A stretch of DNA of 64,000 bases from the IMG/VR virus record IMGVR_UViG_2939521961_000004; one strand, given 5' to 3'. A program made the position numbers. The number at the start of each line of letters is the position of its first letter. The first letter of the stretch is position 1. Shown in pieces: positions 18,001 through 21,000 of the stretch. The stretch is from a virus (Duplodnaviria > Heunggongvirae > Uroviricota > Caudoviricetes).

Positions 18001-21000
18001 TGCTGAAGTTATTGACGTTCTCCGAAAATACCAAGTTCAAGAAGAGCAATTCGGGAAAGTATGGAATTATCATTGAGCAGATAAGGCTCATATTTCCTCA
18101 TATTAATGGCATCTTCAGTAAACTCCCGGTTACTGAGCAGAACACCAATATCAAAACAACCTTCAGACGTATTAACGTTTGGTAATAACGTTTCCATTAT
18201 CGCGTCCTCAACAATGAATTTTGTGATGCGGTGCCTGGTGCCTCCAGGTGACGTTAACCAGTTAACAATTAACGCCGGATACAGAGAATCCACCCATAAC
18301 ACTGTTTTTGGTTTTAACTGTTCCGCGTGCGCTGAGCCGCATTCACCGCATCACAAAATTCACTTTAAAAAGGGCGGCAGAGCAGCCACGGAGTAAAACT
18401 GATACCGCCAAACGTCACCAGAAAATTGATAACAGAGGGCGTTGCAGCGGGGTTGTCACTTAAGCGTATGGTCAACCTGACAACCCGGTGTCCTCAACTG
18501 GGGAAGGAATAACCCCGCCATACTTACCGCCGCGCCATTTCGCGGATTGCCACAACCGGAAGCGCACGGTCGACGAAAATTTAACGACAGGCTATCTATG
18601 AACCAGCTACCTCGCCGTGCGCTTTCGCGTTATGGTCTGACTTTTCAGGGAAATATCCTTTCAGTAAACTGTCAGTGCCGGATGCTCACCCGTGTCCGGC
18701 GCACGCACTCCACCTCACCCGTGGAGAACTCCTTAATTACCAACCTTAGCTTCGTTGGTTAGCTATTAACGCGGGTATGTAATCATTCTGGCAATGCTTA
18801 ATGCCGCTGCTTTTTCCAGATTGGTGATATCCTGCTCCAGAGCGGACAGATTTTCAGCCTGCTTAGCCCTGGCTTCATTGGCCCATTTCAGGTCCTGCGC
18901 TGCCTTAATTTTCTGGTGCATCCACTCATAAAGTTCATCATCGGTATAGTCTGGCGCGATGATGACGGGTTCTCGTTTCTGCATGTCGGCTCCTTGTGGT
19001 TAGCGCTGCCTGCTTTTAACCACGTCAGGCGAGGTGGTATCCTCTGAGGGGTCTGTTACTCGAGAGGAAATTGGTTATGAATACAATCAAGTTTTCTTGC
19101 CCAGAATGTGGTGGCGAAGTCTTTGACACATCCTTTAAACCGCATGGCTCTGACAGTTTCGCGGGAGCCATCTGCAAAAATTGTGGTCACCTTGTAACTG
19201 AAGATGAGTCCTCGCAGTTTGATGACGAAATCGTTGACAATATCTTCGGTGCACTCACCAGAGACTTTCTGAAGTAAAGGCGCATACCGCTTAGTTACCG
19301 CTCTGATAATTCTTACCTGTCCGGCAATGGCGCTGATATCAATATAAAGCGCCATCGCTGTTTCTTTGCTGATCCCTGGATGCCTTCCATTCTGATGTTT
19401 GACTTCGCCCACTGAGAAATCCTCTGTTTCCCCTTAACGCCGGGGTAGCGGAACAAAAAACCTGCTGCATAGTTAAACGTAATCCCCGCCGTCATGTTCA
19501 TACGCCTCAGGCTGGCTACTTAACCCCTGACCACTGCCGGGTAACTCGAAGTATTGCCCTGCGTTCTGTGGGGCGGGGTGGGTTTATGGATACAATTTAC
19601 AAATTAAAATTTAACTGGTCAACATGTTTATTATTAAATTTGTAATTGCGGGCTGTTGCATCAGTCCCAAAATGGGACTACTATACAGTTATGAAGATTA
19701 TCTCAGTTAAAACACTCAGGGATTTTTGGGCGGAGAATCCTGATGCAGAACAACCGCTAAGGGCATGGGTGGATGAGGCGGCAAAAGCTGACTGGAAAAG
19801 CCCAGCAGACATTAAGGCACAATACCGAACGGCCAGTATATTGAAAAACCGGCGCGTGGTATTCAACATAAAAGGTAATCATTACCGTTTAATTGTTGCA
19901 ATTGCGTATCAGCGAGGATGGGTATTTGTTAAATTCATCGGAAACCACAAGGAATACGATGCTATTGATGCTGATACCATCGAACTGGAGTAAGCATGAA
20001 CATCAAACCTATTCGTACAGAGCAAGATTATGAAGCCGCGTTGCGTGCTGTTGAACCCATGTTCGACAATGAGCCCGAAATTGACACGCCTGAGGGGGAT
20101 TTTTTTGAGGTGATGTGTTTGCTAATAGAGGAATATGAAAAAAAACATTATCCCATTGAGCCACCATCCCCAATTGAAGCTATAAGATTTCGCATGGAAC
20201 AGCAGGGGCTGACTGTGAAAGATTTGGAACCCGCAATTGGGAAAAAAAATCGGGTTTATGAGGTGTTGAATGGTACCAGAAGCCTTACGTTACCAATGAT
20301 TCGCCGTCTTCATAATCAATTTGGTATCCCCCTGGAAAGCCTGGTTGGATTATAAAATCTGCTAGTCATTTGCCTGATGCTCGTTCCAGAAAAGGAATGC
20401 ATCAGGCAGTTTTGTTTTTCTGCCGCAGTAACTCTTCAAGTTTCCGTTTATAGAAATCGCGTTTTTGCTCCATATCACGAATGATCTGCTCTGCGTCGCT
20501 TTGAGGTAACTCATCTAAAAGCGATATGATTTTTCGTTGTTGTTCTGTAAGTTGCGGTTGGTTGTCATTACTGGATACAGCCATTTTATCGCCGAGAGTT
20601 TCTTCTTCCATAAAGAACCAATGGACGGGATGTTGTGAGAGCTCTGCTAATTTTTCCAGTTTATCCATTCTTGGCATCACGCCTTTCAACCAACCTTGCA
20701 CGGATTGGGGTTTTACACCAAGACGTCTTCCCAGCTCTGACTGGTTTATATTCAATTCCTGCAACACCTGCTGAAGGCGTTTTACAAAGATCATCACCAC
20801 CCCTCGTAAACTAGTTCCGCGATCCTACAGAAAAAATTGATAAGTGGCATTACAAATAGAAGTTGAAATTTAAATTTAAATTTGTAATTATCGGTGTCAT
20901 CGTAAAGTTCGGAGGGAAACATGCAAAAAAGTACTCAAGTGAAAATCCTGTCAATAATGAGCCAATCAGAATTAGGGCGTCGTCTTGGTAAAACACCGCA

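Follow-up and report, generated by a model that had tools for sequence, protein, structure and literature searches.

In the Qin prophage of Escherichia coli K-12, DicA represses both dicBp and dicC (PMC10448788, PMC3441716), and in prophage CP-933P the regulators PaaR2 and YdaS footprint the right operator region (OR) and repress the leftward promoter PL933P, with the toxin-antitoxin (TA) pair paaA2-parE2 lying within the immunity region (PMC8630535). Here we describe a related arrangement in a stretch of 64,000 nucleotides from the IMG/VR virus record IMGVR_UViG_2939521961_000004 (Caudoviricetes; the whole stretch is referred to as the window), in which a higBA TA pair lies between the gene for a 130-residue DicA-like repressor and a candidate leftward promoter (PL). 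The region matches, at 100% identity, a prophage of Shiga-toxin-producing E. coli (STEC) in strain E2865 and in the O103:H2 strains 129 and 12009. Two intergenic sites, one at each end of the segment holding higBA and the repressor gene, share a 12-mer and an inverted 8-mer, TTACAAAT. From the comparisons below we consider it likely that these sites are the left operator region (OL) and OR of a heteroimmune lambdoid prophage of the Qin/CP-933P type, and the targets of the DicA-like repressor.

The DicA/DicC/dicBp locus of Qin shares with the window a short two-domain repressor (about 130–135 residues) without a RecA-cleavage domain, a divergent cro-like gene, operator-like repeats at both promoters, and a PL with a TTGACC −35 hexamer, a 17-nt spacer and a CATCAAC start region that drives ydfC-DicF-dicB (the Qin −10 hexamer is TAATCT). 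The window PL is, in position and sequence, the counterpart of dicBp. The operators differ, being Oc (TTGTTAGTCATAACTAACAA) in Qin and TTACAAAT in the window, where Oc had no match within 3 mismatches; because the recognition helices of the repressors differ as well, the two prophages are read as heteroimmune. Unlike Qin, the window has a YdaS-type cro followed by a YdaT gene, and higBA is inserted where Qin has 166 bp without cargo between dicA and dicBp.

The similarities to CP-933P are a TA pair between the repressor gene and PL/OL in a lambdoid immunity region, a YdaS-type Cro, a YdaT-type CII analog, OL repeats that resemble the OR repeats, and the same PL leader. In contrast to the window motif, the CP-933P repeat consensus has been reported as GTTTAGTAA, and its TA genes are cotranscribed with the repressor without a regulator of their own, whereas higBA of the window runs convergently to the repressor gene from a promoter of its own, which includes a HigA palindrome. 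With lambda CI/Cro, the window shares dual operator sets on divergent early promoters and an exchangeable immunity cassette, higBA standing between the repressor gene and PL as the accessory (exclusion) genes rexAB do; unlike lambda, it has no S24 autocleavage domain in its repressor, its operators differ in length and spacing, and its cargo is not cotranscribed from the repressor maintenance promoter (PRM). The locus is a new example of a known arrangement, with an uncharacterized operator specificity and a different TA cargo.

Paired motifs at the two candidate early promoters

The initial annotation of this DNA proposed that a 12-mer, AAATTTGTAATT, occurs both upstream of higB and between the repressor and cro-like genes, each time with an upstream half-site as partner, and that the two places are OL and OR. 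An exact search of the 64 kb found the 12-mer at these two positions and nowhere else (19636–19647 and 20878–20889, both on the plus strand; still exactly two copies with up to one mismatch allowed), and the match can be extended to a shared 14-mer, TTAAATTTGTAATT. The 8-mer ATTTGTAA/TTACAAAT occurs six times in the window against 1.8 expected, a count attained in 0 of 100 shuffles. Four of the six copies make up two inverted pairs, 19597–19604(−)/19638–19645(+) and 20850–20857(−)/20880–20887(+), and each copy of the 12-mer does have its inverted TTACAAAT partner. When the two AT-rich intergenic stretches (19585–19690 and 20795–20920) were shuffled locally with dinucleotides preserved, an inverted 8-mer pair common to both arose in 0 of 5000 shuffles and a shared word of at least 14 nt in 1 of 5000; the pairing is non-random by this measure. 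The two remaining ATTTGTAA copies, at 15106 and 63875, are each single sites and were rejected as operators.

Both sites have the same layout relative to a candidate promoter (Table 1), with one TTACAAAT motif upstream of the −35 hexamer and one, inverted, over the −10 hexamer, and the spacer plus −10 of PL and of the rightward promoter (PR) agree at 17 of 18 bases (TTAAATTTTAATTTGTAA and TTAAATTTAAATTTGTAA). PL points leftward into a conserved leader, ydfC, DicF and dicB. Each 8-mer is probably one half, the stronger, of an operator that is pseudo-palindromic and spans about 19 bp (TTACAA-N7-nWTAAA); seven bases inward of every strong half, the hexamer nWTAAA is conserved. At OL, the promoter-proximal strong half (19597–19604) overlaps the PL −10, and the distal candidate, which includes the 12-mer, lies 15 nt upstream of the PL −35 and is identical to OR operator O1 at 16 of 19 positions. 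At OR, O1 contains the other 12-mer, the strong half of O2 (20850–20857) abuts the candidate PRM −35, and the weak half of O2 is the PR −35 hexamer TTGAAA itself. The locus as a whole has divergent repressor and cro genes with repeated, conserved motifs over the PR hexamers and, on PL (19597–19647), another set of candidate operators belonging to that sequence class, as in lambdoid immunity regions. A minus-strand promoter-like match at 20900–20873 was rejected, its −35 not being kept in homologous loci.

The strong halves are 31 bp apart at OR and 42 bp at OL. These distances are too large for one helix-turn-helix (HTH) dimer, so that the 8-mers of a site are read as strong halves of separate adjacent operators; the OL/OR assignment of the initial annotation has comparative support at both promoters, but its pairing of the two 8-mers as halves of a single operator is unlikely. 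Because the distances correspond to about three and four helical turns, the strong halves lie on one face of the DNA, a placement that would favor cooperativity between neighboring dimers. Octamers of lambda CI and of PaaR2 (PMC8630535) offer a parallel for possible looping over the 1.25 kb between OL and OR.

Conservation of the motifs with the repressor and their replacement in heteroimmune relatives

Homologs of the repressor, 47–89% identical, were found in E. coli, Salmonella, Sodalis, Serratia, Arsenophonus/Phlomobacter and metagenomes. Their HTH region is invariant, including the recognition helix KPQSVQGWL, and similar operators are therefore expected in all of the homologous loci. Spacing at OR could be counted in 14 loci, which come from five genera and metagenomes, and PL was located in 11 (in 10 via the conserved leader and in locus L004 by reading the sequence). 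At OR, a block of about 65 bp is kept between freely varying leaders on the cro and repressor sides; its invariant columns are ATTACA(A/G)AT, TT-CAA, A-TTG-A-TG and T-TGTA. The motif pair ATTACA(A/G)AT..ATTTG(C/T)A(A/G)T is retained with a C-to-G distance of 31 bp in 12 of the 14 loci, the other two having a 7-bp deletion, and 13 of the 14 have T(C/T)TGTA, a third element, at a distance of exactly 25 bp from the strong half of O2. The PL consensus consists of TTGACn, 17 nt ending in ATTTG, TA(G/A)ATT and the CATCAAC start region. The proximal OL motif ATTTGTA(G/A) covers the −10 in all 11 loci with a located PL, and the distal motif AATTACAAAT lies 14–18 nt upstream of the TTGACn −35 in 10 of them, as (A/G)TTACAAAT or as variants ATCT(A/G)CAAT; in the eleventh, L015, it has decayed to ATTAAAAAT. 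The OL strong halves are 42–44 bp apart across loci.

The DNA between the repressor gene and PL is much less uniform. This slot holds higBA in the window and in L004, L017 and L018, is empty in L010 (Sodalis), L012–L016 and L022, and in L021 contains a 138-residue open reading frame (ORF; 1191–1607) and a second gene; OL motifs are present in every one of these loci, with only the decayed distal half in L015. Elsewhere the slot holds two small ORFs (L019, 4414–5038), a PLD-family protein (L006, 4506–5780) or a PaaA2-domain antitoxin gene without ParE (L008, 4454–4645), and in the latter two loci only the OR pair was seen. Comparison of the loci indicates that the slot is a variable cargo site, and the OL motif is independent of higBA since it is kept with higBA, with other cargo or with none.

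Twenty-six distinct half-sites, all from loci outside E. coli and none from the window or its close E. coli relatives, were aligned on the RCA core to give a weight matrix of 14 positions. Over the window (about 128,000 positions), ranks 1 to 4 went to two sites at OL and two at OR (scores in Table 1), and these were the only positions to reach at least 14 bits; in the held-out loci L017 and L018, the matrix picked exactly two OR and two OL sites. The loci are homologous, so that these figures measure conservation rather than independent discovery. Exact 9-mer sharing between the OR and distal regions of homologous loci was too strict a measure and found little. A high half-site matrix score was also seen for TCATTACAGATTT(C/A), just 5′ of the exonuclease gene start at 17741–17754. 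It was rejected as an operator, being a single site that recurs upstream of the exonuclease gene (4997–5010) in the heteroimmune prophage L024, and is for that reason not tied to the window repressor.

Where another repressor precedes the PL leader, different promoter-operator DNA lies upstream of CATCAAC. Phage Tritos has GTAC-rich repeats there, the paaR-paaA-parE locus L024 has AATAGCA repeats at both OR and OL, and in K-12 Qin, dicBp carries Oc-like GTTAGTCATGGCTAA repeats and dicC/dicA carries Oc; the DNA upstream of the second leader copies in the Arsenophonus loci L012 and L014–L016 differs as well. No matrix match occurs at OL or OR in Tritos, L024 or K-12 Qin, or at these second leader copies. 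The operators thus co-vary with the repressor while the flanks are held in common, as expected of heteroimmunity. Homology between Tritos and the window breaks off at 19583 and picks up again at 21166. Both sites thus belong to a single exchangeable unit with higBA, the repressor and cro; on these breakpoints the immunity-specific cassette is 19584–21165, and the earlier placement of HigBA within the immunity region is supported.

The predicted repressor and competing explanations

The repressor consists of an XRE-type HTH domain (residues 1–61), a linker and C-terminal helices. In the AlphaFold2 (AF2) model (mean predicted local distance difference test score, pLDDT, of 78), the five-helix XRE domain has a pLDDT of about 90 and is followed by a low-confidence linker (62–83), which is probably flexible, and two C-terminal helices (84–94 and 100–127). 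The N-terminal domain superposes on P22 c2 with a root-mean-square deviation of 1.1–1.2 Å over 61 residues, and also on 434 Cro and SinR; DNA-binding domains of the P22 c2/434/SinR type bind short pseudo-palindromes as dimers. The 434 operator is ACAA-N6-TTGT, and ACAA is also present in the window strong half-site, although, relative to 434 and P22 c2, N7 would take the place of N6 between half-sites, the inner halves are weak and the C-terminal domain is unrelated. A fold search matched only generic XRE HTH domains and nothing on the C-terminal domain, and a PDB sequence search gave a weak HTH match only. No S24 peptidase domain was found in the repressor, where the only matches were HTH_3 and HTH_26 and the C-terminal part of the model consists of helices alone; as for DicA, inactivation presumably depends on an antirepressor or on bistable switching and not on RecA (PMC10448788).

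The NCBIfam DicA model NF007257 aligned to 127 of the 130 residues with 49.9 bits (E = 2.7e-13), below its 101-bit cut-off, and K-12 DicA is 22% identical over 125 residues (E = 2e-7). As in the DicA subfamily, the protein has the same two-domain architecture and adjoins a dicB/DicF operon. On these alignments it is a distant full-length homolog and heteroimmune relative of DicA, not a DicA equivalog. Membership in the PaaR2 family was rejected, as no similarity was detectable (BLASTP E = 5.4 against the 166-residue PaaR-type regulator of L024, which is not the EDL933 protein).

In the mechanism that we propose, the repressor would bind TTACAAAT-type half-sites, probably as dimers held together by the C-terminal helices. 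Its operators at OR would cover PR and abut or overlap the candidate PRM, and those at OL would flank the −35 and cover the −10 of the PL that drives the leader, ydfC, DicF and dicB. With the repressor in place, both early operons would be off, a state that Cro would reverse. The YdaS-like Cro, 71% identical to its Sodalis counterpart, most likely binds the same half-sites and is expected to compete with the repressor for the same operators.

Several points weigh against this assignment. Binding of the repressor to these sites is predicted from comparative and statistical rather than biochemical evidence, and the homologous loci share ancestry, so that conservation shows constraint and does not identify the binder. 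The 31- and 42-bp gaps are too wide for one HTH dimer, and the inner operator halves are weak and AT-rich (TTTAAA, AATAAA), which makes the operator boundaries uncertain. The promoter scan yielded 6 promoter-like sites against 4.8 in shuffles, a count no better than chance, and the hexamers of the PRM candidate (ATGCCA/TAGGAT) are poor. A copy of PL/OL was looked for downstream of the cargo in L006 and L008 and was not located.

The left site could instead be the autoregulatory operator of HigA, its copy between the repressor and cro genes reflecting cross-talk or coincidence. HigA has an HTH domain, and palindromes within their own promoters are the usual targets of type II antitoxins. The site is literally upstream of higB, as the initial annotation had it, but it appears to serve the minus-strand, dicBp-type PL and not the higB promoter. 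The higBA promoter has a different element of its own, a perfect palindrome, AGTCCCA-AAA-TGGGACT (19663–19679), that takes up the spacer and probably serves as the operator of HigA. In two plasmid higBA loci (L002 and L003), GTCCCA-N3-TGGGAC is likewise found between a −35 and a TACTAT/TATTAT −10, and these loci have neither TTACAAAT nor a matrix match in upstream DNA that is otherwise unrelated, even though the HigA of L003 is 94% identical to that of the window; because plasmid higBA keeps its palindrome yet lacks TTACAAAT, the left site is not the HigA operator. The palindrome is conserved with higBA in three contexts, and L010, L012–L016, L021 and L022 lack higBA yet keep the OL motif. The plasmid comparison and the higBA-free loci largely rule out HigA as the binder, and we give this explanation next to no weight. 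The complete E. coli genomes are uninformative on higBA dependence, as none of the 148 with the repressor is without higBA.

Promoter architecture by itself might also account for the shared sequence, as a duplicated promoter with an AT-rich UP-like or bent tract that is possibly bound by H-NS, Fis or IHF. The regions contain phased AAATTT runs and are 64–70% A+T, the −10 lies under the proximal motif, and H-NS/Cnu interferes at the DicA operator in Qin (PMC3441716). However, the C and G of TTACAA/TTGTAA are among the invariant positions, in inverted orientation and upstream of the −35, and relatives with other repressors replace the motif while keeping the −35, the CATCAAC start region and the leader, which makes this account improbable. 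That the YdaS-like Cro alone recognizes the motifs, with the 130-residue protein acting elsewhere (for example, at a TACAG..CTGTA element near its own start), would agree with the co-variation of the cro-like gene with the cassette and with the binding of YdaS to both OR and PL in CP-933P (PMC8630535). It is very unlikely, however, given that in lambda, Qin and CP-933P the same operators serve repressor and Cro, that the recognition helix of the repressor is invariant across the motif-keeping loci, and that lysogenic silencing of PL/dicB needs the repressor and not Cro (PMC10448788). We therefore retain the DicA-like repressor as the predicted ligand of both sites.

The higBA cargo, neighboring features and implications

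The order of the pair is that of a type II higBA locus, with the gene for the HigB (RelE-fold) toxin preceding that for the HTH antitoxin, and the pair is convergent with the repressor gene. Of 5426 complete E. coli genomes, 148 have the repressor, and all 148 have higBA too; going by the listed strain names, many are of STEC serotypes (O103:H2, O45:H2). The pair is independent cargo between the repressor gene and OL/PL that travels with, and may stabilize, the immunity cassette. Coupling may go further, in that repressor occupancy, or PL firing on induction, could modulate HigBA expression; the distal OL operator candidate ends 8 bp upstream of the higB −35, back-to-back with PL, and this arrangement is kept in E. 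coli and Salmonella relatives. Since higBA lies within the exchangeable cassette, it could act as an addiction module. We regard functional coupling of this kind as rather unlikely; were it true, HigBA would kill cells in which recombination has exchanged the immunity region, a role already suggested for paaA2-parE2. The higB −10 ends 6 nt before the ATG at 19691, and the higB mRNA may be leaderless or nearly so; the plasmid homolog L003 has a 20-nt leader with a Shine-Dalgarno sequence.

Table 1 Coordinates of the features of the immunity region in the window
Feature	Coordinates	Strand	Description
DicF small RNA	18372–18423	−	75 bits
PL candidate	19594–19622	−	−35 TTGACC (19622–19617), 17-nt spacer, −10 TAAATT (19599–19594); promoter scan
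OL promoter-proximal operator candidate	19597–19615	−	GTTAAATTTTAATTTGTAA; matrix 19.1 bits, rank 2
OL distal operator candidate	19627–19647 (19-bp core 19627–19645)	−	AATTACAAATTTAATAATAAA; matrix 16.8 bits, rank 3
higBA promoter	19656–19684	+	−35 TTGCAT (19656–19661), 17 nt, −10 TACTAT (19679–19684)
higB	19691–19993	+	Pfam HigB_toxin (PF09907), E = 4.8e-33; RefSeq annotation
higA	19996–20355	+	HTH_3; RefSeq annotation
Terminator candidate	20371–20408		Hairpin TGCCTGATGC..GCATCAGGCA followed by a T-run; 10-nt inverted repeat, 100% complementary
DicA-like repressor, 130 residues	20402–20794	−	Pfam HTH_3; NCBIfam DicA model; AF2 model
PRM candidate	20822–20850	−	−35 ATGCCA (20850–20845), −10 TAGGAT (20827–20822); predicted from sequence
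OR O3 candidate	20825–20843		CTACAGAAAAAATTGATAA; overlaps candidate PRM −10; invariant OR-alignment columns
OR O2 candidate	20850–20868		TTACAAATAGAAGTTGAAA; matrix 14.2 bits, rank 4; invariant columns A-TTG-A-TG and TT-CAA
PR candidate	20863–20891	+	−35 TTGAAA (20863–20868), 17 nt, −10 AATTAT (20886–20891) preceded by TG; promoter scan
OR O1 candidate	20869–20887	+	TTTAAATTTAAATTTGTAA; matrix 21.2 bits, rank 1; covers PR spacer and −10; ATTACA(A/G)AT invariant in OR alignment
YdaS-family Cro analog	20921–21181	+	Pfam YdaS_toxin and HTH_3; phrog_35

To the left of the locus, on the minus strand, lie the exonuclease gene, dicB, the DicF small RNA and ydfC, and to its right the YdaS-family cro-like gene, a YdaT-family CII analog (21178–21615) and replication genes. 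A hairpin between the convergent higA and repressor genes, overlapping the last repressor codons, is a candidate bidirectional terminator; analogous hairpins are found 3′ of the repressor gene in L006, L008 and L010. The sequence TTGATT-N6-AATCAA, reported as the operator of YdaT (the CII analog) in CP-933P (PMC9986795), has a perfect match at 21171–21188, the only exact match in the 64 kb, which straddles the cro stop and the ydaT start in a PRE-like position.

The PL leader (19420–19587, minus strand) is unannotated and is present in 3100 of 5426 complete E. coli genomes as well as in Sodalis, Arsenophonus and metagenome loci, with the core CGAGTTAYC..TAAGTAGCCAGCCYGAGGCRTAWGAACATGAMGGC. It matched no Rfam family, the only matches being DicF and an STnc100-like element further downstream, and RNAalifold found no covarying structure in it. 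DicF and the STnc100-like match directly downstream of it span 18165–18423 (minus strand), the latter being sub-threshold at 37.7 bits against a gathering score of 47. In Arsenophonus, the leader copies are followed by canonical boxA (CGCTCTTTAA) and boxB (TCGCTGAAAAAGCGA) elements; the window leader has only a CCCC-GGCGTTAA-GGGG hairpin, which is also found in K-12 Qin upstream of ydfA. Antisense within the PL operon, in place of Qin ydfA/ydfB, is a small zinc-ribbon gene of the ECs_2282 family (19077–19277, plus strand), followed by a hairpin (19324–19358); a 118-residue minus-strand ORF that overlaps this gene is probably spurious. A second TA pair, comprising a RelE/ParE-family toxin and a ParD-family antitoxin, lies downstream of the replication genes of the same prophage at about 27917–28479 (L001, 16618–17180).

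The value of these results is in annotations and testable constructs, and current concepts are left unchanged. They define a likely operator code, built on TTACAAAT-type half-sites, and a PL/PR/PRM layout for an uncharacterized immunity type that also has relatives in Salmonella, Sodalis, Arsenophonus and Serratia, and they add a second, independently organized case of a TA pair embedded in a lambdoid immunity cassette.

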